Assembly: GCA_028279595.1 (NCBI GenBank)
Contig: JANQNK010000001.1
Location: 189,891-253,890, forward strand
Direction: 5' to 3'
DNA length: 64,000 nucleotides
Source of the DNA: Thermoplasmatota archaeon
Lineage (GTDB): Archaea > Thermoplasmatota > JAKEGO01
Each line of letters starts with the position of its first letter. Within the stretch, counting starts at the first letter, position 1. Shown piece by piece: positions 3,521-51,231 of this stretch. Below the pieces are notes generated by a model that worked only from the letters and a program-made list of their open reading frames with translations, ran no database searches and was not told the origin of the DNA. The position numbers and the translations under genes were made by a program.

Positions 3521-3560
3521 GCGCTCGTCCCCGAGCCAATCGGGGGACAACGCGTGTCAC
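3521..3560. repeat. Dispersed hairpin repeat, copy 1
   Basis: GCGCTC-GTCCCC-gagccaatcg-GGGGAC-AACGCGTGTCAC. Confidence 0.75.
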
Positions 3561-3625
3561 TAATATCACCCTTGGCGGTGGTCGGTCCGGTAAAATTATC
3601 TAATGTCATCGCCTTATCCGGGCCG

Positions 3626-4192
3626 ATGGCCGAACCGATGGTACTGCTCGGAGCCGCCCTTACGGGATTCTGGCTCTTCTTCCCGGCCTACCTGGCCAAT
3701 CCCTCCGCCGTTCTGTCAGGTCACGGCACGCCCGTCGACTTCGGCAGGTCGATGGGAGGAAAGCGCATCCTCGGCGACGGCAAGACGTGGTGGGGCCTGA
3801 TAGGCGGCACTCTCTCGGGCGGTTTCATCGGCGTCATCCAGATGTTGATCGGAGGACCGACCGGCCTTCCGACCTTCGGCACCACACTCTTTGCTATGAT
3901 GATACCATTCGTGTTGGCCTTCGGTTCACTGTTCGGCGACATGCTCGGCTCCTTCATCAAACGCAGACTCGACGTCGAACGGGGTGCGAAGGCGCCGATA
4001 CTCGATCAGTACGATTTCGTGATCGGAGCTTTCATCGTCGGGCTGATATTCATTCCGGGATTCATGATCGATACCTATCTGGCCGGGACCGCGATCGCCG
4101 GTCTGGTCATGCTATTGGTCGTGACTCCACCTCTCCACCGGGCTGTCAACATCGTCGGCTACAAGACCGGGCAGAAGGACGTTCCCTGGTAG
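3626..4192 (+). CDS. carS: CDP-archaeol synthase
   Basis: PAYLAN..PVDFG...RILGDGKTW, GDMLGSFIKRRL, PILDQYDF and C-terminal KDVPW motifs; start placed at ATG 3626. Confidence 0.92.
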   Translation: MAEPMVLLGAALTGFWLFFPAYLANPSAVLSGHGTPVDFGRSMGGKRILGDGKTWWGLIGGTLSGGFIGVIQMLIGGPTGLPTFGTTLFAMMIPFVLAFGSLFGDMLGSFIKRRLDVERGAKAPILDQYDFVIGAFIVGLIFIPGFMIDTYLAGTAIAGLVMLLVVTPPLHRAVNIVGYKTGQKDVPW

Positions 4193-4232
4193 AGCTGACG
4201 CTGGACCAGTAGATCTTCAGAAATAGTTCTGA

Positions 4233-4406
4233 TCAGATCCATCCTTTGTTCGCGAACTCCACTATCACGATCGACGCGATGCAAAAACCAACTACCAGCC
4301 GCGGATCGATCTTCAGGGCCTTGGCGTCCTCTGCGTCGAAGTACCGGATGAGTCCAGCGGCAGAGTGGAAGCCTTCCCCCTTCTTCTCCTTTCGCGGTGG
4401 TGCCAT
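4233..4406 (-). CDS. secG: Preprotein translocase subunit Sec61beta
   Basis: 57 aa; [16 protein letters not shown] followed by one TM helix. Confidence 0.9.
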
Positions 4407-4512
4407 GTCGACCGAGAGCCCATTCTGACTTGCATTATATAAATCTATCTGGGGAACGACATCCCATACAGTCCCAGGGCACCACCGCTCCCCTAGCAAT
4501 CCTTATTAATCA

Positions 4513-4550
4513 TTACATTATATCTGCAATGTAACTACAATGTAGTCACA
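4513..4550. promoter_or_regulatory. Overlapping inverted repeats (putative operators) upstream of the benzoyl-CoA reductase operon
   Basis: TTACATT-N8-AATGTAA (4513-4534) and near-perfect 21-bp palindrome TGTAACTACAATGTAGTCACA (4530-4550), just downstream of the TATA-like TTATTAAT. Confidence 0.6.
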
Positions 4551-4560
4551 AGTGGTAACT

Positions 4561-4701
4561 ATGGCAGTCGAGAGGGTGAAGTTCGAGGTCTACGGGCAGG
4601 AGATGCTGGAGAAGGAGGTAAAACCCTCCGGGAACTCCGGCAGGGTGTACCTGCCCCCTGACTGGGTCGGGAAGCATGTGAAGATAATCAGGGTAGAGTG
4701 A
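4561..4701 (+). CDS. DUF2080-family small protein (AbrB-like), 46 aa
   Basis: Below the ORF-track cutoff. MAVERVKFEVYGQEMLEKEVKPSGNSGRVYLPPDWVGKHVKIIRVE fits the EKxVKxxGNSGRVYLPxxWxGxxVKI pattern. Confidence 0.85.
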   Translation: MAVERVKFEVYGQEMLEKEVKPSGNSGRVYLPPDWVGKHVKIIRVE

Positions 4702-4702
4702 G

Positions 4703-5155
4703 GTGGCAGGTTTGGCAAAATATACGATCAGGACGATGCGGCTCGATGACATCGACGCCATCGTCGATATACAGAAGGCCCTAGTGAAGAGGAGCGCGAC
4801 CAGGCGATGGCGTAAGGCCCTCAAGGTCTACATCGAGACCGAGCCGAAGGCCTGTCTTGTGGCTACGTTCAAGGGGAAGCCCATCGGCTTCATCATCGGC
4901 GACGTCAAGACGTGGGGATTCGGCATGCGCCATTCCGGTTGGATCGAGATAATCGGGATACATCCGAAGCACATGGGCACAGGAGTTGGACGCGACCTCG
5001 GGAAGCGCCTGCTGCGCTACTTCAGGTCGATGGAGGTGGACGGCATCTACACCGCCGTCCGATGGGACTCCGGCGACCTGCTATCGTTCTTCAAGTCGAT
5101 CGGTTTCGAGCATTCGGGGTTCCTGAACCTCGAACATTCAGGATCGAAGAGGTGA
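4703..5155 (+). CDS. GNAT-family N-acyltransferase
   Basis: Acyl-CoA-binding motif GIHPKHMGTGVG and FFKSIGF. Confidence 0.85.
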   Translation: MAGLAKYTIRTMRLDDIDAIVDIQKALVKRSATRRWRKALKVYIETEPKACLVATFKGKPIGFIIGDVKTWGFGMRHSGWIEIIGIHPKHMGTGVGRDLGKRLLRYFRSMEVDGIYTAVRWDSGDLLSFFKSIGFEHSGFLNLEHSGSKR

Positions 5156-5182
5156 TACAGTAACGAATAATGGAGGGATCGG

Positions 5183-6307
5183 ATGATTGAGAAGTTCAAG
5201 GATTGGGAACAGAACCGGCATGAATATGCCAAGGAATGGAAGGAACGCACCGGGGGGAAGGTGATGGGCTGCTTCTGCACATATGTGCCCGAGGAAGTGC
5301 TCTACGCCGCGGGCGTGCTTCCGGTCAGGATCCTGGGAAGCCATGAGCCCCAGGACGTGACCGAGCCGCACATCTTCGGGATGTTCTGTCCCTTCTGCAG
5401 GGACTGCCTGGCGCAGGGTCTGAAGGGACGATACGACTACCTCAACGGGATAATGATCGCACAATCGTGCCTGCACATCAGACAGACCTTCTGGAGCTGG
5501 CAGAAGCACGTGGAAGGCCTGGAATACTCGAAGTTCTTCATAATGCCCCACAAGGTGCAGAGCAAGGACGCGCCCGAGTTCCTAAGGGGAGAGATCGAGG
5601 AGTTCGTTGCGGAGGTCGAGGAGTGGACGGGCAAGAAGATCACGGACGAGGCCCTCGACAACGCCATTGCGGTCTACAACAAGAACCGCGAGCTGATGAG
5701 GAAGCTCTACGACCTCCGGAAGGACCCGAACCCGCCGATATCCGGCGAGGAGGTCATGGAGATCAGCATGGCCATGGAGATGGTCGACAAGGCGGAACAC
5801 AATGCGGCCCTTGAGGAGCTTTTAGAATGGCTTCCGTCGAGGACCGACAAACCCTCCGGAACCCGGCTGATGATCGTGGGGTCCGAGGACGACGACATAA
5901 CGTTCCTCAACATGGTCGAGACCTCAGGGGGCTTGTTCGTCGTGGACGACCACTGCACCGGGAGCCGCTACTTCTGGAACCAGGTCGAACCGGCCGAGGA
6001 CAGGCTGATGGCCATCGCCCAGAGGTACATCGACCGGCCGCCATGTCCGACGAAGGACTGGGAGGAGAGGAAACGGCTTCCCCACATCGTCGGCCTGGCC
6101 AAGGATTGGGACGTTGCCGGCGCGATAATCATGCAGCAGAAGTTCTGCGACCCGCACGAACTGGATTTCGTGGCTGTGAAGAAGGCCCTCGAGGACGCAG
6201 GCGTTCCGACGCTCTTCCTCGAGTTCGACGTGACCGTGCCCATAGGGCAGTTCAAGATCAGGGTCGAGGCATTCCTCGAGATGATCGGAGATGAGGACCT
6301 GTTCTGA
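5183..6307 (+). CDS. bzdN: Benzoyl-CoA reductase, Bzd-type subunit N
   Basis: GCFCTYVPEE, FCPFCRDCLAQGL, QQKFCDPHE; first in N-O-P-Q order. Confidence 0.9.
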   Translation: MIEKFKDWEQNRHEYAKEWKERTGGKVMGCFCTYVPEEVLYAAGVLPVRILGSHEPQDVTEPHIFGMFCPFCRDCLAQGLKGRYDYLNGIMIAQSCLHIRQTFWSWQKHVEGLEYSKFFIMPHKVQSKDAPEFLRGEIEEFVAEVEEWTGKKITDEALDNAIAVYNKNRELMRKLYDLRKDPNPPISGEEVMEISMAMEMVDKAEHNAALEELLEWLPSRTDKPSGTRLMIVGSEDDDITFLNMVETSGGLFVVDDHCTGSRYFWNQVEPAEDRLMAIAQRYIDRPPCPTKDWEERKRLPHIVGLAKDWDVAGAIIMQQKFCDPHELDFVAVKKALEDAGVPTLFLEFDVTVPIGQFKIRVEAFLEMIGDEDLF

Positions 6308-6319
6308 GGTGGTGATGAT

Positions 6320-7660
6320 ATGGAAGATCTGTATCCGACCGAGAAATTGAAGTGCTGGAACGAATCGAAGGACCTCAGGATGAAGTATTACCAGGACTAC
6401 GCCGAGGCACACGATAACGGAGGACTGAGATGGGCCGGAGGCGCCTGGACGTTCGACGCGATCCCCGCGGGGCTGGGAGACGACGTCTATCCGATAACAA
6501 GCGAGCCTTACGGCGCCACCCTGGCATTCGACAAGGAACTCTCGCTGAAATGTCTCGAAGCGACCGAGGTGAAAGGCTATCCGCGCGACCTCTGCTCGTA
6601 CATGCGCAACTACTGGGGTTCCATCATTACGGACACGTTCGCATTCGGCTACGACGCCGAGGGGAACTTCCAGCCGAGGTTCCTGGACGGCGTCGAGCCC
6701 CTGGGATTCCCGAAGCCCGACTTCATCTGGCAGGACCACATCTGCTGCTCGCACGCGAAGTGGTACCAGGTCGTGTCCGAGCTGGAGGGTGGCATCCCCG
6801 CATATTCCGTCGACAACGCCGTGGGACCCTCCCACGAGATCAACGACCGGAAGATCAAGTTCGTCGTGGAACAGCTGAAGGAAGGCATCGAGTTCCTCGT
6901 CAAGACCACGGGACGGGATTACGACGACGAGCTACTTTACAAGGCTATCAGGAACCACTTCGTCTCGACGTCGAAGTGGGCGGAGATCTGTGAACTGAAC
7001 AAGAACATCCCGGCTCCCTTGGACGAGAAATCGATCTACTCCCTGTATGTCTTCGGGACGCTCCAGAAGGCGGGAGCGCAGGTTGCGAACTTCTACGAGA
7101 ACGTCCTCCTGCCGGAGGTGCAGGACAGGGTCAGGCGCGGTATCGCCGCTGTGCCCACAGAGAAGTTCCGTGTCATGTCCGACACACAACCGCCGTGGAG
7201 CTTCCTGAGCATCTTCCGTTATCTGGAGGAGTACGGCTGCGTTTCGGTGGGGTCTCTCTACACATTCGGTCTCCTTGGTCAGTGGGAGGACAAGCCCGAC
7301 GGGACCTGGGGCCCGAAGACGATACCTGACACAAACTTCTCGTCCCGGGACGAGGCGCTCTACGAGTACGTGAAGTACGAGCTGCACAAGCCGGAGTGGC
7401 AGCACTTCTACTCCTGCCATCAGAAGAGCGACATGATGATACGTATCGCCAGGGAATGGCAGCTGTCGGGAGTGATGCTTCACTACAACCGCGGCTGCGA
7501 GGGCCTGAGCATCGGTATCGCCGAGAACCGTCTGGCGCTGATCGACGCGGGCTTCCCGGTCATGGCGTTCGAGGGCAACAACGCGGACGAGAGGGAGTTC
7601 GACCAGGCCCGGACCAAGGCCAAGATAGACGCGTTCATGGAGACGCTGGGGGCCAAGTGA
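6320..7660 (+). CDS. bzdO: Benzoyl-CoA reductase, Bzd-type subunit O
   Basis: YPTEKLKCW, DLCSYMRNYWG, DHICCSHAKWYQ, HYNRGCEG. Confidence 0.9.
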   Translation: MEDLYPTEKLKCWNESKDLRMKYYQDYAEAHDNGGLRWAGGAWTFDAIPAGLGDDVYPITSEPYGATLAFDKELSLKCLEATEVKGYPRDLCSYMRNYWGSIITDTFAFGYDAEGNFQPRFLDGVEPLGFPKPDFIWQDHICCSHAKWYQVVSELEGGIPAYSVDNAVGPSHEINDRKIKFVVEQLKEGIEFLVKTTGRDYDDELLYKAIRNHFVSTSKWAEICELNKNIPAPLDEKSIYSLYVFGTLQKAGAQVANFYENVLLPEVQDRVRRGIAAVPTEKFRVMSDTQPPWSFLSIFRYLEEYGCVSVGSLYTFGLLGQWEDKPDGTWGPKTIPDTNFSSRDEALYEYVKYELHKPEWQHFYSCHQKSDMMIRIAREWQLSGVMLHYNRGCEGLSIGIAENRLALIDAGFPVMAFEGNNADEREFDQARTKAKIDAFMETLGAK

Positions 7661-7672
7661 GAGGTGAGATGA

Positions 7673-8452
7673 ATGATCACAATGGGAATAGACATGGGTG
7701 CGAAGAACATCAAGGTCGTCGTTCTGAGGGACGACGAGATCATTGGGAAATCCCTGGTCACCGCCGGGTTCGACGTGGAGCCTGCGGCCAACGAGGCCAT
7801 CGACAAGGCCCTGGAGGCCGCGGGTGTGACACGCGACGAGGTCGATAAGACCGTGTCAACCGGTGCCGGCGAGAAGCAGGCCCCGATGTTCGATGAGACG
7901 AAATCGATGGTCGGTTGCGACTCGCTCGGAGCTGTCTACCTCCACCCCGCCGCCCGTAGCGTCATCGACGTCGGGGCAGAGGAGGGTCGGGGCATGCGGT
8001 GCGACGAGACCGGAAAGATCCTGGATTTCGAGGTGAACGAGAAGTGCGCCGCCGGCGCTGGAGCCTTCACTGAGGCCATGTCGAGGGCCCTTGAGGTCCA
8101 GCTCGAGGAGCTCGGGCCGTTGTCCCTCGAGGCCGACGAGGAGGTCCCGATGAACGCGCAGTGCACTGTCTTCGCGGAGTCGGAGGTCGTGACCATGGTG
8201 CACAACAACATTTCGAAAGCGAACATGGCGAAGGCCGTCCACGATGCAATGGCGAGCCGGATAACCTCCATGGTGAGGAAGATCGGGTTCAACAAGGACG
8301 TGGTCCTGGTTGGCGGCGTTGCCCGCAACATCGGCTTCGTCACGTCGCTGAACTCGGACCTCGAGCTCGAGGTCGTGGTTCCTGAGGACCCGGAGTTCGT
8401 CGGAGCACTGGGAGCGGCGCTTGCCGCCTCAGGATGGAAGGGAGGTGCTTGA
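7673..8452 (+). CDS. bzdP: Benzoyl-CoA reductase ATPase subunit P
   Basis: ASKHA activase fold: GIDMG, IDVGAEEGR, NEKCAAGAG, QCTVFAESE. Confidence 0.88.
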   Translation: MITMGIDMGAKNIKVVVLRDDEIIGKSLVTAGFDVEPAANEAIDKALEAAGVTRDEVDKTVSTGAGEKQAPMFDETKSMVGCDSLGAVYLHPAARSVIDVGAEEGRGMRCDETGKILDFEVNEKCAAGAGAFTEAMSRALEVQLEELGPLSLEADEEVPMNAQCTVFAESEVVTMVHNNISKANMAKAVHDAMASRITSMVRKIGFNKDVVLVGGVARNIGFVTSLNSDLELEVVVPEDPEFVGALGAALAASGWKGGA

Positions 8453-8453
8453 A

Positions 8454-9320
8454 ATGGCTGACAAGGTAGAACTGTGGAGATGGACCGAGTCCAGGTGGAC
8501 GAATCCCGACATGGACTGGAAGGGGAAGCTGATAACCTCCGGCATCGACGTCGGTTCCGTCAGCTCCCAGGCCGTGATCCTCGCCGATGGCGAGCTCTAC
8601 GCCTACTCGAACATGAGGACCGGCTCGAACAGTCCGGACTCGGCGATGAACGCCATCAACTGGGCCATGGAGGACACCGGGCTCAAACTGGATGACATAA
8701 CGTACACCGTCGGGACAGGTTACGGTCGTGTGAACGTACCGTTCGCCCAGAAGCCCATAACCGAGATCGCGTGCCACGCCCGCGGGGCGAACGCCATCTA
8801 CGGCAACACCGTGCGGACCGTTCTCGACATGGGCGGCCAGGACTGCAAGGCTATCCACTGCGACGAGCGTGGCAAGGTCACGAACTTCCTCATGAACGAC
8901 AAGTGCGCGGCCGGGACCGGTCGCGGCATGGAGGTCTTCGCTGACCTGCTAGGCGTGTCCATCAATGAAGTGGGCGACCTCTCGCTGAATGTCGAGGAGG
9001 AGCCAGACCCCGTGAGCAGCACATGTGTGGTCTATGCGAAGACCGAGGCCACGGGACTGCTCCGCGAGGGCTGGCCCACGAACAAGGTGCTGGCAGCATA
9101 CTGCTCCGCCATGGCCCACAGGATAATCACCCTGCTCGAGAGGATCGGAGTCGAGGAGGACTTCGCCATCACAGGCGGGATCGCAAAGAACGTCGGCGTG
9201 GTGCAGCGGCTGGAGAAGGAGGTCGGGATAAAGATCCTCAGGACAGAATACGACACCCAGCTGGCCGGTGCCCTAGGCGGAGCGCTGTTCGCCAAGGTCC
9301 TTCACGAGAAGGGCAAGTAG
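8454..9320 (+). CDS. bzdQ: Benzoyl-CoA reductase ATPase subunit Q
   Basis: WRWTESRW N-terminus, GIDVGSVSSQ, DMGGQDCK, NDKCAAGTGRG; start ATG 8454 after GGAGGTG. Confidence 0.9.
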   Translation: MADKVELWRWTESRWTNPDMDWKGKLITSGIDVGSVSSQAVILADGELYAYSNMRTGSNSPDSAMNAINWAMEDTGLKLDDITYTVGTGYGRVNVPFAQKPITEIACHARGANAIYGNTVRTVLDMGGQDCKAIHCDERGKVTNFLMNDKCAAGTGRGMEVFADLLGVSINEVGDLSLNVEEEPDPVSSTCVVYAKTEATGLLREGWPTNKVLAAYCSAMAHRIITLLERIGVEEDFAITGGIAKNVGVVQRLEKEVGIKILRTEYDTQLAGALGGALFAKVLHEKGK

Positions 9321-9330
9321 GTGATGCCTG

Positions 9331-9618
9331 ATGATCGCGAACTATGGATACAAGGACGGCTCGGGCGACTACTTCATCGCCATCGACACCGACAGGTGCA
9401 ACGGGTGCGGGGACTGCGTAACAGCATGCCCCTACGGCGTCATGGGCGTGGGTCCGGATGAGAACGATCCCCTCTCGGACGACGAGGTGGCGTTCGTCAC
9501 CGAGGCCGAGAGGAAGAAGATCAAGTACACCTGCGCACCGTGCAAGCCGATGGCCGACAGGCCGCCGCTTCCGTGCATCGCTGCCTGTCCGCTCGATGCG
9601 ATCGAACATTCCTGGTAA
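9331..9618 (+). CDS. bzdM: 2[4Fe-4S] ferredoxin, BzdM-like
   Basis: CNGCGDCVTACP and CAPCKP...CIAACP; directly follows bzdQ. Confidence 0.8.
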   Translation: MIANYGYKDGSGDYFIAIDTDRCNGCGDCVTACPYGVMGVGPDENDPLSDDEVAFVTEAERKKIKYTCAPCKPMADRPPLPCIAACPLDAIEHSW

Positions 9619-9672
9619 GTGGGAATGGAGTGCCAACGGCAGAGGGGTAGCACAGGGACGGAGAGTGACCAA

Positions 9673-12186
9673 ATGGGCGTCAGACTGACGATCAACGGAG
9701 ACGCTGTCGAAGCGGAGGATGGAACGACCATCCTTGAGGCCGCCGGATCGGCCGAGACATACATTCCGAGGCTATGCTATCATCCCAGTCTCGGGAGTTC
9801 CCACGGACAGGAGCCTGTCGAAGCCGTGTACCGCGAGGACGGCGAGTTCCGGAACGACGGGTCCGGACCCGATGACGGATACGAAGGTTGTCGACTGTGT
9901 CTCGTCGAGATCCAGGGGCGCGACGGTCTCTTCACCGCCTGCGATACCGCGATCGAGGACGGCATGATCGTCGAGACGGAGACGGAAAGGATCAAGGCAG
10001 AGAGGATGACCAACCTCGCCGGGATCCTGAAGGACCATCCCCACGCATGTCTGAGGTGCGCGCAGCAGGAGGGCTGTTCGCGGACCCAGTGTTCGACGAA
10101 CGTGCCCGAGGACGAGCGTTGCTGTCCACTGCTTGGGCACTGCGAACTGCAGAAGGTCTCGAACTACGTCGGCGTCCGCGAGGACCTGACCAAGTACGTG
10201 TTCGCCGACCTCCCCAGGCACGACGACGAACCACTCTTCACACGAGATTACAATCTATGCATCTCATGTCTAAGGTGCGTGCGGGCATGCCGCGACCTTC
10301 GCGGTGTGGACGCGCTCGGTTACGTCTTCCAGGACGGCAAGGCCGTGGTCGGACCGACGATGAACCTGAGCTATTCCGAGTCGGATTGCCGTTTCTGCGG
10401 AGCGTGCGCCGAGGTCTGCCCGACCGGGACGATCATGGACAAGGACCTCCCGAAGGGAGAGAGGGAGGACGTCCTTCTGCCATGTGTTGCGAACTGCCCT
10501 GCTGGTGTCGACATCCCGAGGTACATGGACCTGATATCCAATGGAGAGTTCTCGACGGCCAACGCCGTTGTCGCCGAGAGGATACCGTTCCCGGGGGTCC
10601 TCGGGCGTATCTGCTTCCATCCATGCGAGGATGAATGCAGGCGGAGCGAACTCAATGCGCCGATGGGCATCTGCGGACTGAAGTGGTTCGCATCGGACAA
10701 CGCGGATGCACCTTCTGTATCAGCCAAGCCATCGACAGGGAAGACCGTCGCTGTGATCGGAAGCGGTCCGGCCGGTCTATCGGCAGCGTACTATCTCGCA
10801 GGATCGGGACATGCTGTCACCGTTTTCGAGGCCGAGGAGAAGCCTGGCGGGATGCTCAGATACGCGATCCCTGATTACAGGCTCCCGCCAGACCTGCTTG
10901 ATTCGGAGCTATCCGTCTTCGAACGGCTCGGTGTGACACTCAAGACCGGTACCAGGGTCGGCGGCGACGGCCTCAAGATCGGTGATATCCAGAACGATTT
11001 CGACGCTGTCTTCGTCGGAACCGGCGCATGCCTCAGCAAGCGGATCCCCGTCGAGGGCGCGGAACTCGAGAACGTTCTCTGGGGTCTAGATTTCCTGAAG
11101 GATGTGAAGACGGGCGCCATTGATTCCCTGGCAGGCCGCGTTCTCGTGATCGGCGGTGGCAACGTCGCGATCGATGTGGCACGTTCGGCCATCCGTCTCG
11201 GTGCTGAAGAGGTCCAGCTGGCCTGCCTCGAGGCGAGGGATGAGATGCCCGCACATGGCTGGGAGATCGAGGAAGCCGGCGAGGAGGGCGTTGTCATGCA
11301 TCCGTCGTGGGGGCCCAGGAGGATCCTTGGAGACGTCGGCGTCATGGGCATCGAACTGGTCAAATGCACCTCGGTCTTCGACATGGACGGCTGTTTCGCC
11401 CCCGAGTTCGACGGGTCAGAGACGATGACGATCGAAACCGACATGGTCATAATGGCCATCGGCCAGACGGCCGACCTGACGTGCATCGAGGACGCTGGTA
11501 TCGAGACGAGCGCGGGTACTGTCTGTGTCGAGGGGTGCGAGACCGGCGACAAGGGAACCTTTGCTGGCGGAGAGGTCTCAAGAGGACCATCGTCCGTCGT
11601 CGAGGCCGTCGCCGACGGCGCCATGGCCGCGGCCGCCATCGACATCCACCTTGGTGGCGACGGCGACATATATTCGCCCTTCATGGTCCCGGGAGAGCCC
11701 GATCCGAACGTCGGTCATGTCGAGGGATTCGCAGCGATGGAACGGATCGATATTCCCAAGAGGGATATTGATGAGAGGAAAGCCTGCTTCGACCAGGTCG
11801 AAATGGGATACTCCGAGGACCAGGCAAGGGCAGAGGCCGTCCGTTGCCTTCGATGCGACCTGAGGCTCCTGATAGAGCCGGTTACCCTGCCGCCTGATAT
11901 GTGGATGGAGCTGAACGAGGAGAACGTTGCAGAGGTGCCGGCGATAGAGGGCGTCGTCCAGCTCCTCAACGAGGAGAAGATGATAATCGTGATCCAGGGG
12001 ACCCAGGACATGCATGCGGAGCTCGAGGCGAAGCTGGGTACCGAAACGAAGGCGAGATATTTCGGCATCGACGCCGATCCCATGTATTCGAAGAGGGAGA
12101 ACGAGCTGATGCAGATGTTCCTGCAGCAGTTCGGGAAGATGCCGGAAGGCGACGGAGAGGGAGACGATCTTGATGACCTGTTCTGA
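9673..12186 (+). CDS. bzdV: BzdV-like NAD(P)H:ferredoxin oxidoreductase (2Fe-2S, 4Fe-4S and GltD-like FAD domains)
   Basis: IPRLC..GCRLC, several CxxCxxC motifs, GRICFHPCE, GSGPAG, GGGNVAID; start ATG 9673. Confidence 0.75.
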   Translation: MGVRLTINGDAVEAEDGTTILEAAGSAETYIPRLCYHPSLGSSHGQEPVEAVYREDGEFRNDGSGPDDGYEGCRLCLVEIQGRDGLFTACDTAIEDGMIVETETERIKAERMTNLAGILKDHPHACLRCAQQEGCSRTQCSTNVPEDERCCPLLGHCELQKVSNYVGVREDLTKYVFADLPRHDDEPLFTRDYNLCISCLRCVRACRDLRGVDALGYVFQDGKAVVGPTMNLSYSESDCRFCGACAEVCPTGTIMDKDLPKGEREDVLLPCVANCPAGVDIPRYMDLISNGEFSTANAVVAERIPFPGVLGRICFHPCEDECRRSELNAPMGICGLKWFASDNADAPSVSAKPSTGKTVAVIGSGPAGLSAAYYLAGSGHAVTVFEAEEKPGGMLRYAIPDYRLPPDLLDSELSVFERLGVTLKTGTRVGGDGLKIGDIQNDFDAVFVGTGACLSKRIPVEGAELENVLWGLDFLKDVKTGAIDSLAGRVLVIGGGNVAIDVARSAIRLGAEEVQLACLEARDEMPAHGWEIEEAGEEGVVMHPSWGPRRILGDVGVMGIELVKCTSVFDMDGCFAPEFDGSETMTIETDMVIMAIGQTADLTCIEDAGIETSAGTVCVEGCETGDKGTFAGGEVSRGPSSVVEAVADGAMAAAAIDIHLGGDGDIYSPFMVPGEPDPNVGHVEGFAAMERIDIPKRDIDERKACFDQVEMGYSEDQARAEAVRCLRCDLRLLIEPVTLPPDMWMELNEENVAEVPAIEGVVQLLNEEKMIIVIQGTQDMHAELEAKLGTETKARYFGIDADPMYSKRENELMQMFLQQFGKMPEGDGEGDDLDDLF

Positions 12187-12198
12187 TGGAGGAAGTAC

Positions 12199-12468
12199 AT
12201 GGTGAGCGTCACCGAACTGCCGGAGGACCAGCTGGAACGTGAGGGCTGGGAGCGACGGTCGATACTGGACGATCCCAGACTATCAGAGGTCGTCGCCTCG
12301 TACGAGGAGATGGGTCTCGAGGTTGCCCTCAAGGACATCGACGGTGTGGAGGCCGACGCCTGCATCACATGTCTGGACGGGCCGATGGGCCGGTTCATGA
12401 TCGTGTACACCCGACCCGGTACGGGCCGGAGCAAGCTGGACGAATTGTTCGAGGGGGATGCAAAATGA
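12199..12468 (+). CDS. Small hypothetical protein with CxxC
   Basis: GGAGG RBS; stop overlaps the next start (ATGA); GWERR..DPRLSE..YEEMGLEV..CITC..IVYTR. Confidence 0.7.
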   Translation: MVSVTELPEDQLEREGWERRSILDDPRLSEVVASYEEMGLEVALKDIDGVEADACITCLDGPMGRFMIVYTRPGTGRSKLDELFEGDAK

Positions 12469-13091
12469 TACTGGAGAAGCTGGTCGTCGGTCCGATCGGA
12501 GCGAACTGCTTCATCATCGGAGACTCTGGAGAGGGCGCCGTGATAGATCCAGGAGGAGACCCTGAAAAGGTCATCAGGGCCGTCCGCGCCACGGAACTCA
12601 AGATCAAATACGTCATTGCCACCCACGGCCACTTCGACCATACCGGTGCGATCGGTCCGGTCGTGGAAGCCCTCGGGTGCGAGTTCCTCATGCACGAGGA
12701 GGACCTCTTCTTCGCACGGGACTCGGTCACATCCGCCCGGAGATGGGGCGTCGTGGTCGATCAGGTCCCGGATCCGGACCGGTTCATCGTGGACGGCGAC
12801 ATTATCGAGATAGGCTCACTCCAGATGAAGGTCATCCATACGCCTGGCCATTCTCCCGGCGGTGTGTCACTGTACATTGGATCGGAGGGCGCTCTCTTCG
12901 CCGGTGACACGCTATTCCAACGCTCCATCGGCCGGACCGACTTCAGACAGGGCTCCATGGAGGTGCTCCTGCGGTCGATACGGGAGAGGATATTCGAGCT
13001 TCCTCCCGAGACGGTCGTTTACACAGGCCATGGTCCCGAGACGACGGTCGACGAGGAGAGCAGGATGAACCCGTTCGCGAGGTTGAGGTGA
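12465..13091 (+). CDS. MBL-fold metallo-hydrolase (glyoxalase II-like)
   Basis: THGHFDH, TPGHSPG, GDTLF, GHGP. Confidence 0.9.
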   Translation: MILEKLVVGPIGANCFIIGDSGEGAVIDPGGDPEKVIRAVRATELKIKYVIATHGHFDHTGAIGPVVEALGCEFLMHEEDLFFARDSVTSARRWGVVVDQVPDPDRFIVDGDIIEIGSLQMKVIHTPGHSPGGVSLYIGSEGALFAGDTLFQRSIGRTDFRQGSMEVLLRSIRERIFELPPETVVYTGHGPETTVDEESRMNPFARLR

Positions 13092-13834
13092 TGGACTCCA
13101 TGGAACGCCTCAGGGAGATCGTCGAGACATCAGACAGGATAGTCGCGTTCACCGGCGCCGGTCTGTCCGCCGAGAGCGGGATCCCGACCTATCGTGGCGC
13201 GGGCGGGCTCTGGACCAAGTACGATCCCAACATCTACGCCAACATCGACCATTTCCTCAGGGACCCGACCTACTACTGGAACTTCTTCCAGGAGGTCAGG
13301 TATCCCATCATAAGCCAGGCGCAACCCAACCCAGCGCACGATGCGCTCGTCGAGCTAGAGAGGCGTAAGCTGCTGAAGACGGTCATCACCCAGAACATCG
13401 ACGGGCTGCACCAGATGGCAGGCTCGCAGAACGTGATCGAACTTCACGGGAACACCAGAAGGATAGGGTGCATGGAGTGCGGAAAGGAGTATTCCATGGA
13501 CGAGGTCTACGGCAAACTTCAGGACCAGCTCCCTCCCAGGTGCGATTGTAGCGGGGGATTGAAACCCAGGGTCGTCTTCTTCGGCGAATCACTGCCGTTC
13601 GAGGCACTGGAAGGAGCGAACGACGCGGTCAAGGACTGCGATGCATGTCTTGTCGTCGGCTCGTCCCTCGTCGTGTATCCTGCGGCAATGCTGCCGGTAC
13701 TGGCGTCCGAGAAGGGCGCGCGCTTGGCCATAATCAATATCGATCCGACGCCACTGGACCACATGGCGGAGGTCGTGATCAACGACAGTGCCGGGGACGT
13801 ACTCCATACCGTGGTCAAGGGAGGCTTCGAATGA
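13088..13834 (+). CDS. cobB: NAD-dependent protein deacylase (sirtuin)
   Basis: TGAGLSAESGIPTYRG, TQNIDGLH, ELHGN, Zn-binding CxxC...CxC, GSSLVVYPAA. Confidence 0.92.
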   Translation: MMDSMERLREIVETSDRIVAFTGAGLSAESGIPTYRGAGGLWTKYDPNIYANIDHFLRDPTYYWNFFQEVRYPIISQAQPNPAHDALVELERRKLLKTVITQNIDGLHQMAGSQNVIELHGNTRRIGCMECGKEYSMDEVYGKLQDQLPPRCDCSGGLKPRVVFFGESLPFEALEGANDAVKDCDACLVVGSSLVVYPAAMLPVLASEKGARLAIINIDPTPLDHMAEVVINDSAGDVLHTVVKGGFE

Positions 13835-13864
13835 CGTTAAATCCATGTAATCGGAGGAGGCGGT

Positions 13865-15694: not shown

Positions 15695-16149
15695 AGTACC
15701 TCTACGCCTTCCCCGAGAAGTGCACTGGCTGCAGGGAATGCACTCTCGCTTGCTCCCTCAAGTTCTTCGGAGAGTGCAATCCGAAGAAGGCCGCGATATC
15801 TGTCATAAGGGACGAGTTCCGCCGCTACGAATATCCGATGATATGCTACCAGTGCGAGGACCCCGTCTGCCTGAAGTATTGCCACCAGAACGCGTACGAG
15901 ATAGTGGACGGCGTCGTGATCCGGGACGACGACAGATGCATCGGCTGTCGGATGTGCGCGGTACTCTGCCCTTACAACGCCATATCTGCGATAGATGGTG
16001 AGATTATCAAGTGCGACCTTTGTGACGGCGATCCGAAGTGCGTGAAGTACTGCTCCACCGAAGCCATCCAGTACCTCGACGAGACCGATGAACTGGAGGC
16101 CAGAAGGAAGCAGATGGCAGAGAGGGTGCTAGGGATCGCCTCTGATTGA
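15691..16149 (+). CDS. Multi-[4Fe-4S] electron-transfer subunit of the aldehyde oxidoreductase
   Basis: Four Cys clusters (CTGCRECTLAC, CYQC..C..C, CIGCRMC..CP, CDLC..C..C); overlaps the AOR stop. Confidence 0.88.
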   Translation: MKYLYAFPEKCTGCRECTLACSLKFFGECNPKKAAISVIRDEFRRYEYPMICYQCEDPVCLKYCHQNAYEIVDGVVIRDDDRCIGCRMCAVLCPYNAISAIDGEIIKCDLCDGDPKCVKYCSTEAIQYLDETDELEARRKQMAERVLGIASD

Positions 16150-16956: not shown

Positions 16957-16965
16957 TCGGTCACC

Positions 16966-21733: not shown

Positions 21734-21734
21734 C

Positions 21735-23291: not shown

Positions 23292-23292
23292 T

Positions 23293-25380: not shown

Positions 25381-25384
25381 ATGT

Positions 25385-26623: not shown

Positions 26624-26695
26624 CCACTTGCCCCCCGATACTGATGACTGGGAAATGTTAACTTCTCGATATGACCCTGGTCCATATTAAATTTA

Positions 26696-26829: not shown

Positions 26830-27615
26830 ATGGCTGAAAGAACGTTCTTTGCCGGTATCGATGTGGGCACTTCCTACGTCAAGGCAGTGGTCATTGACCA
26901 CGAGGGAGGACTGGTCGCACGATCCGTACAACGGTCCGGGGCAGACCTCGCCGGCTCGATCACAAGGACATATGAAGAGGTCATCGGATCGGCCGGGATC
27001 ACTGCCGGGGACTTATCCCACACGACCTCGACCGGATTCGGCCGGGGGAACGCGGCCGTCGCCGAGGACTCCAAGACAGAGATAAGCTGCCACGCCAGGG
27101 GTGCGTATCACCATTTTCCGAGGAAGATAACGGTCATCGACATCGGAGGCCAGGACACAAAGGTCATCCACGTCTCAGAGGACGGACGCCGGTCGGGGTT
27201 CAAGATGAACCGGAAGTGCGCGGCCGGTACGGGTGCCTTCCTGGAGGAGATCGCCCACAAGATGGACATCCCGATGGAGGACATGAACGACCTCGCGTCC
27301 AGAGCGACGGACTCCGAGGCACTGAACAGTTATTGCACGGTCTTCGCATCCAGCGAGATACTCACACGGATCCGCGAGGGGGAGAAGGTCGAGGACATGG
27401 TCCGGTCCGCATTCGAATCGGTGGCCAGACGCGTCATCGAGATGGACACCCTCGAGGGCACGATCGTGGCGACCGGCGGGGTCGTGGCGCACAACGACAT
27501 CATGCTCGAGATCCTTTCGAAGCACGCCGGTTCCGAGGTCCTGAGGCCGCCGGACGCCCAGATGAGCGGAGCGCTAGGCGCTGCTCTCTTCGCCAGAGAT
27601 ACTGTGAATGATTGA
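26830..27615 (+). CDS. 2-hydroxyacyl-CoA dehydratase activase (HgdC/FldI-like ATPase)
   Basis: GIDVGTS, TGFGR, EISCHARG, DIGGQDTK, NRKCAAGTG, YCTVFA. Confidence 0.88.
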   Translation: MAERTFFAGIDVGTSYVKAVVIDHEGGLVARSVQRSGADLAGSITRTYEEVIGSAGITAGDLSHTTSTGFGRGNAAVAEDSKTEISCHARGAYHHFPRKITVIDIGGQDTKVIHVSEDGRRSGFKMNRKCAAGTGAFLEEIAHKMDIPMEDMNDLASRATDSEALNSYCTVFASSEILTRIREGEKVEDMVRSAFESVARRVIEMDTLEGTIVATGGVVAHNDIMLEILSKHAGSEVLRPPDAQMSGALGAALFARDTVND

Positions 27616-27619
27616 ATGG

Positions 27620-27661
27620 GCGCTCGATGGCGCCCTTACGGGAGCCATCAACGCGCGTCAC
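27620..27661. repeat. Dispersed hairpin repeat, copy 2
   Basis: GCGCTC-GATGGC-gcccttacggga-GCCATC-AACGCGCGTCAC. Confidence 0.85.
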
Positions 27662-27697
27662 ATGTGCTGTTCAAGGTCCTGCTGTATGTCAGAAACA

Positions 27698-27740
27698 GCG
27701 CTCGATGGCGTCCCTTCGGACAGCCATCAACGCGCGTCAC
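27698..27740. repeat. Dispersed hairpin repeat, copy 3 (tandem with copy 2, 36-nt gap)
   Basis: GCGCTC-GATGGC-gtcccttcggaca-GCCATC-AACGCGCGTCAC. Confidence 0.85.
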
Positions 27741-27828
27741 TGGTCCGTCTGAAGCCCGGTCAACGGAACCTTGCCGATAGTGTTCTCGGCAAAAGGTTAT
27801 TATCCACAGAGTCGAATCGAAATCCGGC

Positions 27829-28767: not shown

Positions 28768-28769
28768 GC

Positions 28770-29048: not shown

Positions 29049-29159
29049 CCACTAGGCATTGGAGGCCACGTATTTAGCGGTTATTCCAGAAACCACCCAC
29101 ACGTTACGTTTTTGTATCCCAGACCCATTGTCTGAACGCTAGCGTTAGGGGGCATCAGC

Positions 29160-30368: not shown

Positions 30369-30379
30369 GGAGGTTCGGA

Positions 30380-32416: not shown

Positions 32417-32417
32417 G

Positions 32418-33008: not shown

Positions 33009-33150
33009 GTTGAACGAGTTGACCGTGGTCCAAACGACCTTGCACATCATCAGATGTCAATAATAAGCGAATAATTTCTCGGTCATTTCTCCGAGTGGCC
33101 AGACCGAAAACCTTTTCGTTGCGATTTCGATAGGGAGGACCGGTGACACA

Positions 33151-34350: not shown

Positions 34351-34355
34351 TCGGA

Positions 34356-35141: not shown

Positions 35142-35151
35142 GGTCGATGAC

Positions 35152-36336: not shown

Positions 36337-36344
36337 GTGTCACC

Positions 36345-36950: not shown

Positions 36951-37005
36951 GCTGCTGCTTGTGAGGTCAAGGACGATTCTATCGTCCGGACCCTGGCCGT
37001 CCGGG

Positions 37006-37860: not shown

Positions 37861-37988
37861 TGGGTATGCACATTTGGTATGTAATAATTTCGCTCGAGAA
37901 ACCGTAGATCGCTGAAGACCTTTGGCACGACTTAAAATATGAGGTGTTCACCATTTTTCCTTTGAAAGCTGCCGCTTGTCGATGAATT

Positions 37989-38022
37989 AAATAAGAAGGG
38001 GTGTCAGCGCTTCCGCTGACAC
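37989..38022 (-). terminator. Hairpin plus pyrimidine/U tract downstream of the CxxC gene
   Basis: Minus strand reads GTGTCAGCG-gaag-CGCTGACAC-cccttcttattt. Confidence 0.55.
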
Positions 38023-47568: not shown

Positions 47569-48261
47569 ATGACGTACGGGATCAACCTCCGTGCCATCGA
47601 TGAATTGACGGATATCGTACCCGGGACCAACGTTATGATCGACGGTCCCGCGATGATCGGGAAGGGCGTCTTCGCCCGCAACATCGTCTACAAGGGTCTT
47701 CGCGAGAACCAGGGGATAGTCATTATCAGCGCCAAGGAGACGAGCAAGGACATCCACAAGTGGTTCGACGGCCACAACGTCGATCTCCAGGCCTACAGGA
47801 AGCAATGGGGGATCATCGACCTTCTGACCTATTCGCTCTATCCCCCGGACGAGAGGGAGAACGACACTGACAACGTGAAGTACATCGACGGCGCCATGAA
47901 CCTGACCAAGATCATGTACACCATGGAGAACATAGTGGACAGGTTCAGGAAGGACGGTATCACCGAGATCGTGATAGTCATCGATTCACTGTCCGTCTTC
48001 CTCATGTACATACCCCTGCAGCCGCTATTCTCGTTCCTACACGTCCTCACGGGGAAGGTCAAGGAGTGGGACGGTTTCTGCGTGGCGATCATCGACAGCG
48101 ACATGCACGACAACAGGACCCTCTCGACCCTCAAGCAGGTCTTCCAGGGCACGGTTGAGATGCGCTACCAGGGCGACGACACCGCCATCAGGGCTGTCGG
48201 TCTATCGCACCAGCCGAGCCCGTGGTTCAGGTTCAAACAGGGATCGCCCCAGGGGGGATGA
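47569..48261 (+). CDS. KaiC/RAD55-family ATPase
   Basis: Walker A GPAMIGK, Walker B VIDSL; start ATG 47569. Confidence 0.8.
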   Translation: MTYGINLRAIDELTDIVPGTNVMIDGPAMIGKGVFARNIVYKGLRENQGIVIISAKETSKDIHKWFDGHNVDLQAYRKQWGIIDLLTYSLYPPDERENDTDNVKYIDGAMNLTKIMYTMENIVDRFRKDGITEIVIVIDSLSVFLMYIPLQPLFSFLHVLTGKVKEWDGFCVAIIDSDMHDNRTLSTLKQVFQGTVEMRYQGDDTAIRAVGLSHQPSPWFRFKQGSPQGG

Positions 48262-48265
48262 CCCC

Positions 48266-48766
48266 GTGAACAGGGACAGGGTCGACCGGGCCGATGATCC
48301 GATATGGAGATTTCTCGAACTACCGTCCGACGAGGTTATGCACCACCACCTCTCGGAGTTCCCCGTCGTCACAGTGGACAGCTCGCTTGACGACATTCTA
48401 TCGATCATGAGGTCCCAGAGCTACGTCTGGGTGGTCAAGGACAGGAGGTCGATGGAACTGGTCGGGATCATCGAGCTCATCGAACTCCTCAGGTACTTCA
48501 TACCGCCCGAGGACACCAGTTACAGGTTCGGGTCCGTGAAGCGGGCGATGCGGAGCTTCCACAAGGGAGGCACGCCGACCGCCGGGGACATCGTCGATGA
48601 CGCGGTGGTCTGCAACCGGAACACCCCGGTGAGGAAGGTCCTGATGAGGATGGTCCGCCAGCAGGTCTGGAGGATCGCCGTCACGGACAAGAAGGGACGG
48701 CTGATCGGCGAGATCACGCAGAAGGGCCTTATCCGGCAGTTCTATCACTACTACAGGTACGGGTGA
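48266..48766 (+). CDS. CBS-domain protein
   Basis: Tandem CBS pattern (VWVV..LVGII; IAVTD..GRLIGEIT); GTG start assumed. Confidence 0.8.
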   Translation: MNRDRVDRADDPIWRFLELPSDEVMHHHLSEFPVVTVDSSLDDILSIMRSQSYVWVVKDRRSMELVGIIELIELLRYFIPPEDTSYRFGSVKRAMRSFHKGGTPTAGDIVDDAVVCNRNTPVRKVLMRMVRQQVWRIAVTDKKGRLIGEITQKGLIRQFYHYYRYG

Positions 48767-48770
48767 TCCC

Positions 48771-49946
48771 TTGGAGGAGGTCTTTGCCTTCTTCCTGCTC
48801 TATCTTGGCGTCGCCCTCATACTATCGAAGCTGCTGTACTACCTGTTCGAGCGGGTCGGTATCCCTGGTGTGCTCGGCGAGGTCGCCACCGGGGTGCTTC
48901 TCGGCGCCTACGTCATCGGGAGGATCGGTGTTGTCGGGGACCTGATGCACGAACCCGGGTTCGCGATACCGTTCGACTCGGTCGCCCATGTCGGGATACT
49001 CTTCCTCCTTCTGATCGCCGGTCTCGAGCTCGATCCCGCCTCCCTCCGTAAGGCTGGAAGGATGTCCGCGATGACGGCCGCAGGGGGCATCGTCGTCCCA
49101 TTCGCCTTTGGGATGGCCATCGGCATCGGGTTCGGATTCTCCTATCCAGAGAGTCTGGTCATTGGTGTCATCCTAACCGCCACCAGCATCGGGATAACCG
49201 TCCGGACCTTCCTGAGGATGGGGGTACTGAACACCGATGTCGGTGTCGTTACGGTCAGCGCCTCAGTGATCGACGACCTGATCGGCGTGTTCCTGATAAT
49301 CATCATCGTAGGCTCGGGGGACCCATTGACGATGGTCGCATTGTTCGCCCTCTTCGCTGTCGTCGTGGCCGCGATGCGCTACGGGATACGACCCTTCATC
49401 CGGCTGGCCGAGGTCGCAAGCCAGGAGAAGGGCACCCTCGCGATCGTGATCGGTTTCGTCCTGATAATGTCCGCCCTGGCGGAATACACGCTCTCCGCCG
49501 CGATCGAGGGCGCCTTCGTCGCCGGCCTTCTCATCAGGATGGTCCCAGGAACGAGGTCGATGCGAAGGGAGATACGGATCATCGGCTACGCATTCTTCAT
49601 CCCGCTCTTCTTCGTCTATGTGGGCACTCTCATCGATCCGAAGGAGTTCAAGGACCCCGAGGTACTCATCGTCGCCTTCGTCATCCTCGCCGGCGCCATC
49701 GCGGGAAAGATCATCGGCGCAGGCGCAGGCGCCCGATTGGCAGGGCTCGATGGAAGGAGGTCGTTGATGGTCGGCATCTCGTCGATCCCGAGGGTCGAGA
49801 TCGCCCTCGTATCGCTTCTCATCGCGATAAGGGCGGACGTCATCAGCGAGGGGAACATTCCCACGTTTGTAGCATCCACGATGCTCCTCGTCACTGTCAC
49901 GACGTTGATAACTCCGATCCTTGTCAGGAAACTGTGGCGCGACTGA
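48771..49946 (+). CDS. CPA2 cation:proton antiporter
   Basis: PGVLGE, AGLE, ATSIGIT, VIDD, FFIPLFF, IAGK, PRVE. Confidence 0.88.
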   Translation: MEEVFAFFLLYLGVALILSKLLYYLFERVGIPGVLGEVATGVLLGAYVIGRIGVVGDLMHEPGFAIPFDSVAHVGILFLLLIAGLELDPASLRKAGRMSAMTAAGGIVVPFAFGMAIGIGFGFSYPESLVIGVILTATSIGITVRTFLRMGVLNTDVGVVTVSASVIDDLIGVFLIIIIVGSGDPLTMVALFALFAVVVAAMRYGIRPFIRLAEVASQEKGTLAIVIGFVLIMSALAEYTLSAAIEGAFVAGLLIRMVPGTRSMRREIRIIGYAFFIPLFFVYVGTLIDPKEFKDPEVLIVAFVILAGAIAGKIIGAGAGARLAGLDGRRSLMVGISSIPRVEIALVSLLIAIRADVISEGNIPTFVASTMLLVTVTTLITPILVRKLWRD

Positions 49947-49947
49947 A

Positions 49948-50361
49948 TCACTTATCGATGTCCAGGAGCGCCGTCCGTTCAATGGCGTCGAGGGTCCCGT
50001 CGGTCTTCGATGGGACCTCCTCACCGGTCGTTCCCAGTACATCCATGACCTGACGGACGTCGCAGTCGACCGCGATCACCACGTTCCTGTCTCCAGGCGC
50101 GGACATCTCGAGCGCCTTCTCGATCCTCCTCTCCCCTGTGAGGTAGAGGATGGTCTCGACCTCGAGGTCCCTGCTCCTGTTCATCTTCTGCGAAAAGGCC
50201 CTCTCCGCGTGTTCGACCGCGGACTCTATGTGGACCATGCCGTGGACCATCTCTGCATTCACTATGATAGCTGTATGATCGTCACTCTCGGAGAACGAGT
50301 CGAGTCTGTCCATCCAATCCTTGGGAACGGCTCCGGTGATGAGGGCGTCGACCCGTTTCAT
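49948..50361 (-). CDS. cgi121: KEOPS complex subunit Cgi121
   Basis: H..SAVEHA.RAF....N.SR.LE.E.ILYLTGERRI.KAL; C-terminal IERTALL. Confidence 0.85.
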   Translation of the reverse strand: MKRVDALITGAVPKDWMDRLDSFSESDDHTAIIVNAEMVHGMVHIESAVEHAERAFSQKMNRSRDLEVETILYLTGERRIEKALEMSAPGDRNVVIAVDCDVRQVMDVLGTTGEEVPSKTDGTLDAIERTALLDIDK

Positions 50362-51092
50362 TCCTCGATCCTCGGTGCCAGGAGGTAGGTGACGTCGCCA
50401 TTGCCATCCGCGATGGAGAAGACCATCTTCATGGGGTACTCCTTGCCGAGGAAGATCTTGACGTCTCCCTTTCCGCCTATGGCCTTGACCATGCTCGAGA
50501 AGTAGTCGAGCGAGAAGAGCGAGCGCATGCTCTCGGGTGTGTTGATCTCGACCAGCTCGTCCTTGCCGAGTACGAGTTCCGCCGAGTCGCGATCGCCTGC
50601 GGCGGAGATGATGAACTGGTCCTTCTCCGCGCTGAGCGCGACGTGCTCCGAGACCGACTCGGAGGCCTTGATGCCCCGACCCAGCTCTCCGACGGAGAGG
50701 ACCACGAATGCTTCGAGGTTGAGCTGCGGGACCTTGGGGTCCGACATCCCGGTAAGGTCGAGGAGGGACATCTCCTTCTTGAGGTTCCCCAGGTTCGCTA
50801 CGAGCCTGTTCTTCTCCTCGTCGTGGTGCATGACGACGGTATCGTCACCCCCACCGAGCTTGAGCAGGTCCTTGAGCTTGTCCACCTCGATGGCGAAAGC
50901 CAGGCCCTTCGCGTCGTACTTCTCGAAGGCCTCTGGCTTGAGCTCCATGACAAGCATCGCGACGTGGGCCGGATCGACGGCCTTGATGGTGATGCCCTCC
51001 GGCTCGGCATTGAACTTGACCTCCTCTACGAGGGTTGAGACAACGCCTACTATCTCCTTCAGGACATCCATCTTTACGGTTATCTCGAACAC
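50358..51092 (-). CDS. pcn: DNA polymerase sliding clamp PCNA
   Basis: AVDPAHVAM, FSLDY, YP, YLLAPRIE. Confidence 0.95.
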   Translation of the reverse strand: MFEITVKMDVLKEIVGVVSTLVEEVKFNAEPEGITIKAVDPAHVAMLVMELKPEAFEKYDAKGLAFAIEVDKLKDLLKLGGGDDTVVMHHDEEKNRLVANLGNLKKEMSLLDLTGMSDPKVPQLNLEAFVVLSVGELGRGIKASESVSEHVALSAEKDQFIISAAGDRDSAELVLGKDELVEINTPESMRSLFSLDYFSSMVKAIGGKGDVKIFLGKEYPMKMVFSIADGNGDVTYLLAPRIEE

Positions 51093-51191
51093 ATTGCGCC
51101 CCCCATTGGAATCGTATGGTCTGCATGGAGGAATCCCTATAAAGAATTACCGTTGAACCCGGTCGATACCTTACCTTCGGTGCCGTCAACC

Positions 51192-51231
51192 GCGCTCGCC
51201 GGCGTTGCAAGCTGCCGGCAACGCGTCTCAC
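51192..51231. repeat. Dispersed hairpin repeat, copy 5
   Basis: GCGCTC-GCCGGC-gttgcaagct-GCCGGC-AACGCGTCTCAC. Confidence 0.75.

Follow-up and report, generated by a model that had tools for sequence, protein, structure and literature searches.

Hairpin repeats of the REP type have been described in bacteria, as has single-strand transposition at the replication fork. The REPs themselves are short (20–40 bp) imperfect intergenic palindromes that occur in tens to hundreds of copies (PMC3333891, PMC3479197, PMC3116915, PMC3733652), and they are gene-less hairpin relatives of the ends of IS200/IS605 elements (PMC3333891, PMC6006769). Most of them are arranged in inverted pairs, namely head-to-head dimers, BIMEs and REPINs (PMC3733652), and a survey saw no RAYT classes in archaea (PMC6006769). 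IS200/IS605 elements take their orientation in the host genome from the direction in which it is replicated (PMC5371812, PMC5027513). Here we describe a family of short hairpin elements found in a stretch of 64,000 nucleotides (subsequently named the window) from a Thermoplasmatota archaeon (GenBank assembly GCA_028279595.1, contig JANQNK010000001.1, positions 189,891 to 253,890 of the forward strand; the contig is C4 and the genome G000 in our numbering). The copies of this family share one direction relative to replication, and their orientation along the chromosome flips at the origin. In the literature we found no described archaeal family with this anatomy, an absolute replication lock and no Y1 enzyme.

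The elements are similar to REPs in several respects. They are short imperfect palindromes in high copy number (88 copies, all but one intergenic), a conserved unpaired tag is located by the hairpin foot (GTAG or CGTC in REPs, GTGA here), the stems carry bulges or mismatches, there are subfamilies with different stems and the distribution is lineage-restricted; that REPs are handled as single-stranded DNA is a further likeness to the behaviour proposed below. However, all 88 copies, neighbours included, are in direct orientation and locked to replication, and inverted pairs of the BIME or REPIN type do not occur. The GTAG tag is absent, the upper stem is far more variable than in a typical REP family, and a RAYT gene, which REPs usually flank, was not found in G000 or in the genome of its sister genus (G001). 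Hairpin repeats without an associated transposase gene are also represented by the CGTC-tagged REP superfamily, but the unpaired terminal CGTC, the 8–9-bp stems from A-T pairs, the 4–5-nt loops and the head-to-head dimers of that superfamily are all missing here (PMC3733652).

With the ends of IS200/IS605 elements and with PATEs the family shares an imperfect hairpin that has an extrahelical base and, at its foot, a short guide-like sequence, and that is read on one strand only (PMC5027513, PMC5371812, PMC3119063). IS200/IS605 elements are active on the lagging-strand template, and here as well the orientation follows replication, on 15 of 15 contigs and with a flip at the origin. In contrast, IS200/IS605 elements have two distinct end hairpins around a body and need TnpA-Y1, whereas the present unit is one hairpin of ∼45–60 nt and neither TnpA nor TnpB was found in G000. 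The attC sites of integrons resemble the family in their paired conserved outer boxes, unpaired central spacer, extrahelical bases and variable inner stem, which are recognised by structure on one folded strand, and their recombinogenic strand is favoured on the lagging-strand template (PMC5371416). However, the RYYYAAC/GTTRRRY core sites are absent from our elements (the flanks read GCGCTCG ... RACGCG), which are dispersed and come with no cassette array and no integron integrase, the best tyrosine recombinase being XerA. At ∼45 nt the element is presumably also short for an attC site. The family is thus REP-like by behaviour; membership in the REP or IS200/IS605 families fails on the features tested, because no Y1 gene was found and there is no GTAG tag, no inverted pair and one hairpin instead of two ends. 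The sequence-only reading had suggested an archaeal REP-like or single-stranded DNA element and not a terminator or RNA motif. As to behaviour, replication bias and the lack of an Rfam match or a T-run this is supported, but family membership and a partner enzyme are not.

Size and anatomy of the hairpin family

The assembly of G000 comprises 2.29 Mb in 21 contigs and is 86% complete. A search pattern composed of the two flanks only, which does not require a hairpin, matched 5 times in the window compared to 0.02 matches expected from dinucleotide shuffles, and 27 times in the genome; the reversed pattern that served as control gave 0 and 1. A covariance model (R1) was built from an alignment of 53 copies (A1), which came from a looser search and were selected with a hairpin filter. 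This model yielded 88 matches in the genome at E ≤ 1 on 15 contigs; the repeats first read from the window therefore have many further copies beyond it. The copies are dispersed at a mean density of about one per 26 kb, and the weakest matches are visibly decayed members with broken stems or flanks. According to our own gene calls, obtained with a simple and crude codon-usage finder (1,678 genes, 88% coding), 87 of the 88 copies are intergenic; the exception (C18:71723) is located inside a called gene. The counts of copies by stem sequence, flank mismatches and folding strand given in the following refer to 84 copies.

Each unit bears a single hairpin and is ∼45–60 nt long. The top strand reads, in this order, (G/A)AC-GCG, CTC, G-N5, a loop of 8–11 nt, N5′-C, (A/G)A, CGC-GT(C) and TC(A/G)N. 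A weak 3′ tail, RT.C.G.....GG, follows with R, T, C, G and GG at +3, +4, +6, +8 and +14/15, and beyond about +15 nt the flanks have no conserved sequence. Both the lower stem, in which GACGCG pairs with CGCGTC, and an asymmetric internal loop, in which CTC faces RA, are conserved; in about half of the copies the right arm contains CGTC (GCGTCTC). The upper stem of 6 bp is free in sequence, with at least 43 distinct versions (the commonest, GATGAC, is present in 10 copies), but its Watson-Crick pairing is kept. That the stems vary and still pair had been noticed in the few copies of the window and is confirmed by the whole family: 97.7% of the cells of A1 are in standard pairs compared to 77.9% in shuffles, the former value being somewhat inflated because these 53 copies were picked by a hairpin filter. 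On inspection of the listing, the 27 flank-only matches, for which no hairpin was demanded, also have a complementary stem. A1 contains 103 cells that are changed on both sides versus 27.6 in shuffles, and none of 500 shuffles reaches this number. Five of the six upper-stem pairs change on both sides, in 6–35 sequences each, and pairing drops to 18–48% when the stem partners are slid. Wobble pairs make up only 1 of 265 upper-stem cells, as would be expected if the element acts as DNA. In 35 of 84 copies a G at stem position 7, ahead of the 3′ arm, is opposed by another G or bulged, which is in line with the unpaired base that was said to precede this arm.

Which of the two strands folds can be judged from its stability and from its variants. 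Folding calculations with DNA parameters favour the bottom strand in 57 copies and the top strand in 24 (p = 8 × 10−5), so that the claim of a better folding bottom strand, with G·T wobble and an extrahelical G, stands. The internal loop of the bottom strand closes as T-A and T·G (or C-G) with one bulged G. Where the top strand has A (54 copies) or G (24 copies), the bottom strand has T or C, either of which is able to pair with G, and A-T (43) or A·C (9) on the top strand corresponds to T-A or T·G below. Since these A/G and T/C variants by the lower stem are tolerated as wobbles only on the bottom strand, they point to the bottom strand as the folding strand. It is also the strand that is exposed by replication as the lagging-strand template (see below). 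The bottom strand starts with GTGA in 29 of 84 copies and with TCGA, CCGA or GCGA in others, the corresponding ends of the top strand being TCAC, TCGA, TCGG and TCGC.

Orientation relative to replication

The orientation of the copies is uniform within each contig (88 of 88 copies on 15 contigs); if the copies are treated as independent, the chance of such uniformity under random orientation is ∼2^−73. The raw GC skew is opposite in sign to the orientation of the element on 14 of 15 contigs. We applied a coding correction by comparing genes co-oriented with the element with genes opposed to it: the corrected GC skew on the top strand of the element is negative on 15 of 15 contigs (p = 6 × 10−5), both at all codon positions and at third positions. 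The GCGCTC... sequence is, in other words, always found on the C-rich strand.

Unique exact overlaps of 99 bp are shared by the ends of contigs C3, C4, C5, C7, C9–C13, C16 and C18–C21. They join 11 contigs into scaffold A with a length of 1.42 Mb (C4+, C13+, C21−, C16−, C18+, C9−, C11+, C3+, C10−, C12−, C5−). Open frames cross most of the joins (21,207 nt at C10/C12, 7,698 nt at C13/C21, 1,617 nt at C3/C10, and also C12/C5). A second overlap chain connects the three contigs C20, C7 and C19. Along scaffold A the orientation is + at 53 copies (22–966 kb) and − at 4 copies (1225–1381 kb), the latter being the only scaffolded copies on the right replication arm. The interval of the flip contains an orc1/cdc6 gene at 1083 kb (C11:162309–163571, Cdc6_C with 106 bits), which is adjoined by an AT-rich spacer of 317 bp. 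The minimum of the cumulative GC skew at 1042 kb lies within the same interval, and so does the turn of the corrected skew from negative to positive. The region C11:162309–163887 is a likely origin; a second Cdc6 paralogue is encoded at C5:34876–36042.

A G-rich leading strand is usual in most prokaryotes. As the skew minimum is found at the origin, the leading strand is G-rich here too, and the top strand of the element is consequently the lagging-strand sequence on both arms. This places the bottom strand, GTGA...GAGCGC, on the lagging-strand template. The replication-strand bias predicted from the window is hence not only present but absolute, in the copies, on the contigs and in the flip of the scaffold. 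A zone of 259 kb around the origin is free of copies (scaffold A 966–1225 kb; from 46 kb of C11 through C3 to C10), with ∼117 kb on the left and 142 kb on the right side, and the scaffolded right arm is sparser, with 4 copies in 337 kb. The right ends of C1 and C15 have 57 bp in common in inverted orientation; if this join is true, element orientation and skew converge there, which would make it a candidate for the replication terminus.

Proposed single-strand handling and alternative explanations

The copy number, structure, covariation, independence from transcription, lock to strand composition, flip at the origin and decayed copies are direct observations, and the same applies to the presence of the family in a sister genus with the same flanks at other sites. 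In view of these we think that the repeats are rather probably a family of short gene-less DNA elements that act as a folded single strand and not as RNA or as a double-stranded site. The bottom strand lies on the lagging-strand template, which is exposed in single-stranded form at each passage of the fork, on both arms. A protein specific for sequence and structure might recognise the foot of the hairpin, the bulge and the tail on this template and might copy, move or protect the element there, in the manner of TnpA at the ends of IS200/IS605 elements and of RAYT at REPs. Such handling would fix the orientation of the element relative to the fork. The proposed protein would not be a recognisable Y1-HUH enzyme. 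In this tentative form, which we hold to be possible although short of probable, the elements are substrates of an undescribed archaeal enzyme other than Y1-HUH that recognises a folded strand on the lagging-strand template; either this enzyme spreads them, which would be a new kind of single-strand DNA mobility in archaea, or the cell has adopted them as direction marks for fork repair or chromosome handling.

A number of findings weigh against this proposal. The RAYT/TnpA-Y1 gene that had been suggested as partner was not found: the Y1_Tnp domain (PF01797) is absent from G000 and from G001 (73% complete) in a search with positive controls. Incompleteness of the genomes leaves some doubt on this negative, but it alone would hide a single-copy Y1 gene in both of them with p of only ∼0.04. 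An IS200-type Y1 transposase is present in G002, a genome of the same order without hairpin copies (G002:C117:18808–19158, in a 147-aa frame, 100.7 bits). TnpB was not found in G000, where the only match to PF07282 was sub-threshold (21.9 bits, in a frame of 738 aa), and the genes beside the copies are housekeeping genes, not transposases. The ten copies that share the stem GATGAC carry unrelated loops with intact flanks. An identical stem-loop at dispersed sites was seen in one case (C5:38216 and C18:254536), and we observed no other near-identical dispersed stem-loops and no sign of a recent burst. Simple copy-and-decay would make loops and flanks diverge together; intact flanks with unrelated loops are better explained by selection in place or by fast mutation of the loops. 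Finally, the C11/C3 join, which carries the flip, falls into a spacer and has the 99-bp overlap as its sole support.

The suggested integrase fared no better than the Y1 enzyme. G000 encodes seven tyrosine recombinases, one of which is XerA while the others are below all specific cut-offs, and none of the seven reaches the cut-off for integron integrases (TIGR02249). If there is an enzyme, it is unrecognised or encoded in unassembled DNA. For the intact flanks and stems with unrelated loops three explanations are possible: each copy is selected in place; or the exposed loops mutate much faster while stem mismatches are corrected arm against arm; or the loops are remade at each event. The contrast between flanks or stems on the one hand and loops on the other is thus a direct test of selection in place versus fast mutation of exposed loops.

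Selection in place would fit a polar DNA signal of the host, in which the lagging-template hairpins are kept by the cell as scattered directional sites for a task linked to replication. Such tasks could be priming or restart after fork collapse, the loading of a repair or segregation machine or the blocking of wrong-way forks, by a logic analogous to that of Chi, KOPS, Ter or plasmid single-strand initiation signals. A polarity of 100% is above most compositional or insertion biases, no transposase was found, and flanks and stems are intact with loops that show no relation to each other, even where the stem is the same. At 15 fixed flank positions we counted 0 mismatches in 47 copies, 1 in 26 and 2 in 8; this steeply falling spectrum (47, 26, 8, 2) suggests that the copies are under purifying selection in place. 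What speaks against a host signal is the lack of copies around the origin, the uneven density of the two arms and the existence of decayed copies. Hairpin signals of this kind are not known from any chromosome. Lagging-template hairpins are usually harmful, not useful.

The distribution among relatives also bears on both sides of this question. We scanned 120 related genomes with R1 and found the family to be clearly present in one of them, the sister genus G001, with 6 copies in head-to-tail arrays and with the same flanks as in G000; one further model match was obtained in G045 (E = 8 × 10−4). The genes flanking the G001 arrays have orthologues of 49–60% identity in G000. That the flanks are kept at such a distance favours a host signal, but the copy numbers of the two sister genera are very unequal (88 versus 6) and the sites are not conserved: the two orthologous G000 regions of the array sites that could be checked are without any copy. 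We therefore rejected a conserved position between the genera. With evidence of this kind on either side we regard a signal selected by the host as unlikely, less so than the readings discussed further below. With an exact pattern of the commonest subfamily, all matches in species-representative genomes and metagenome contigs were attributable to chance. Plasmids and phages had no match.

Neighbouring copies are always arranged head-to-tail with periods of 64–85 nt. We noted nine neighbouring pairs, of which one is a recent duplication of unit plus spacer and others have unrelated stems. Targeted insertion beside existing copies was considered and dropped, as ∼4–5 shared spacers are expected by chance. 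Should a new enzyme indeed handle the hairpins, the mobility or processing of single-stranded DNA would be extended to the replisome of archaea, which is set apart from that of bacteria by PCNA, MCM and PriSL. The copies also have a practical use, as they serve as arrows that show in which direction each contig of a draft genome is replicated; in combination with the skew they located the origin here.

Handling of the hairpins as single-stranded DNA has further to be compared with roles in transcription. The 76 occupied intergenic regions consist of 27 divergent ones (background 226), 23 between tandem genes co-oriented with the element (background 238), 13 between tandem genes in antisense to it (background 224), 10 convergent ones (background 80) and 3 unclassified ones (2 at a contig end, 1 inside a gene). 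All four intergenic classes are hence filled in roughly background proportions and the orientation of the element is independent of transcription genome-wide, as the copies of the window had indicated; on the large contigs the genes are distributed ∼50:50 between the strands. A search of Rfam 15 gave no match in the window at the gathering score and none at E ≤ 1 for 12 copies. T5 within 40 nt after the hairpin was found in 2 of 84 copies on either strand compared to a background of 4% and is not enriched. An archaeal transcription terminator was therefore rejected, on account of the missing T-run and of the gene-independent orientation. Upstream of the element we found no promoter-like conservation at a fixed distance.

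A structured RNA element, either a protein-binding hairpin of an untranslated region or a small RNA with the strand bias as a side effect, could be argued from the downstream gene, which is co-oriented in 54 of 83 copies, from several copies that begin 2–4 nt past a stop codon and from the ability of the hairpin to fold as RNA as well. However, the copies include 16 in antisense to the tandem genes around them and 11 in spacers of convergent genes, and the orientation is set per contig and not per gene. Together with the lack of upstream promoter-like conservation, Rfam match and T-run and with an upper-stem wobble frequency that is unusual for RNA, this makes an RNA function very improbable; the antisense copies include the one at 51192 of the window. 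A double-stranded site for a dimeric regulator would account for the conserved lower stem as an inverted repeat (GACGCG...CGCGTC) and for the many copies upstream of genes, but it is hardly credible, as a reader of the outer repeat would not need variable inner arms kept complementary, a palindrome offers no reason for a complete strand lock to replication and the neighbouring genes are functionally unrelated. A link to restriction sites was rejected as well: the genome shows no avoidance of CGCG, GCGC or ACGCGT.

Copies in the window and neighbouring genes

The four full copies and the degenerate one that had been reported for the window were all found again, on the + strand. In the following, outer coordinates give the full copy including the match of the covariance model and the core is the span of the motif itself. 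The first full copy (3516..3574, core 3521–3560) has the stem GTCCCC/GGGGAC and matches the flank pattern and the model (C4:193406–193464, 48.3 bits); it begins 4 nt past the stop of a + strand gene at 1483–3516. The next two form a head-to-tail pair with a period of 78 nt and both carry the stem GATGGC/GCCATC: 27615..27675 (core 27620–27661; C4:217505–217565, 48.3 bits) comes first and is followed by 27693..27754 (core 27698–27740; C4:217583–217644, 47.2 bits). Between these two copies 18 of 18 flank positions, 12 of 12 stem positions, 10 of 14 loop positions and 16 of 33 positions in the 30-nt tail are identical; the two loops are thus related yet distinct. The fourth full copy (51187..51245, core 51192–51231) has the stem GCCGGC/GCCGGC, matches the model (C4:241077–241135, 54.7 bits) and is antisense to both flanking minus-strand genes.

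The degenerate copy at 41130..41188 (core 41135–41174, + strand) has an imperfect stem and matches the model with 31.9 bits (C4:231020–231078, E = 5 × 10−6). On direct reading, the site at 44812..44848 (+ strand) contains the left box GCGCTCG and the hairpin GCTGAC/GTCAGC without the right box; since this box is missing and the model gives no match at E ≤ 1, to call it partial was fair. The window copies keep to the same strand and to intergenic regions whatever their neighbours, as had been claimed: by our own gene calls the copies at 3521, 27620 and 27698 have + genes on both sides, those at 41135 and 44812 are placed between divergent and convergent genes, respectively, and the one at 51192 is flanked by two − genes. 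At 60100–63780 of the window no gene was called by the crude finder despite open reading frames of 190–250 aa, and this region may be of atypical composition.

Among the genes that recur beside the copies, the paralogue groups that were scanned, namely those of acyl-CoA synthetases, elongation and initiation factors, glycosyltransferases, ABCE1 and DUF362 proteins, were considered as partners and rejected. The scan for paralogous neighbours left out the largest group, seven giant proteins; these large paralogous proteins recur beside hairpin copies. Giant open reading frames were split by the assembler at C10/C12 (21,207 nt, ∼7,000 aa) and at C13/C21 (7,698 nt). Orc1/Cdc6, aIF2-gamma, aEF-2 and an XerA-type recombinase are all encoded in G000, which marks its bearer as an archaeon. 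A tyrosine recombinase adjacent to a copy was likewise rejected as partner, as it is part of an island that has inserted at a tRNA gene. This island (C14:112.2–116.8 kb) shows atypical codon usage, carries the tyrosine integrase and is located at the 3′ end of the tRNA gene, with a hairpin copy ∼35 nt upstream of the tRNA. Four tyrosine recombinases form two pairs of paralogues with similar N-termini (C5:29112–30095 and C1:10130–11098; C7:7426–8418 and C19:195555–196538), and the two pairs probably belong to two families of integrating elements.

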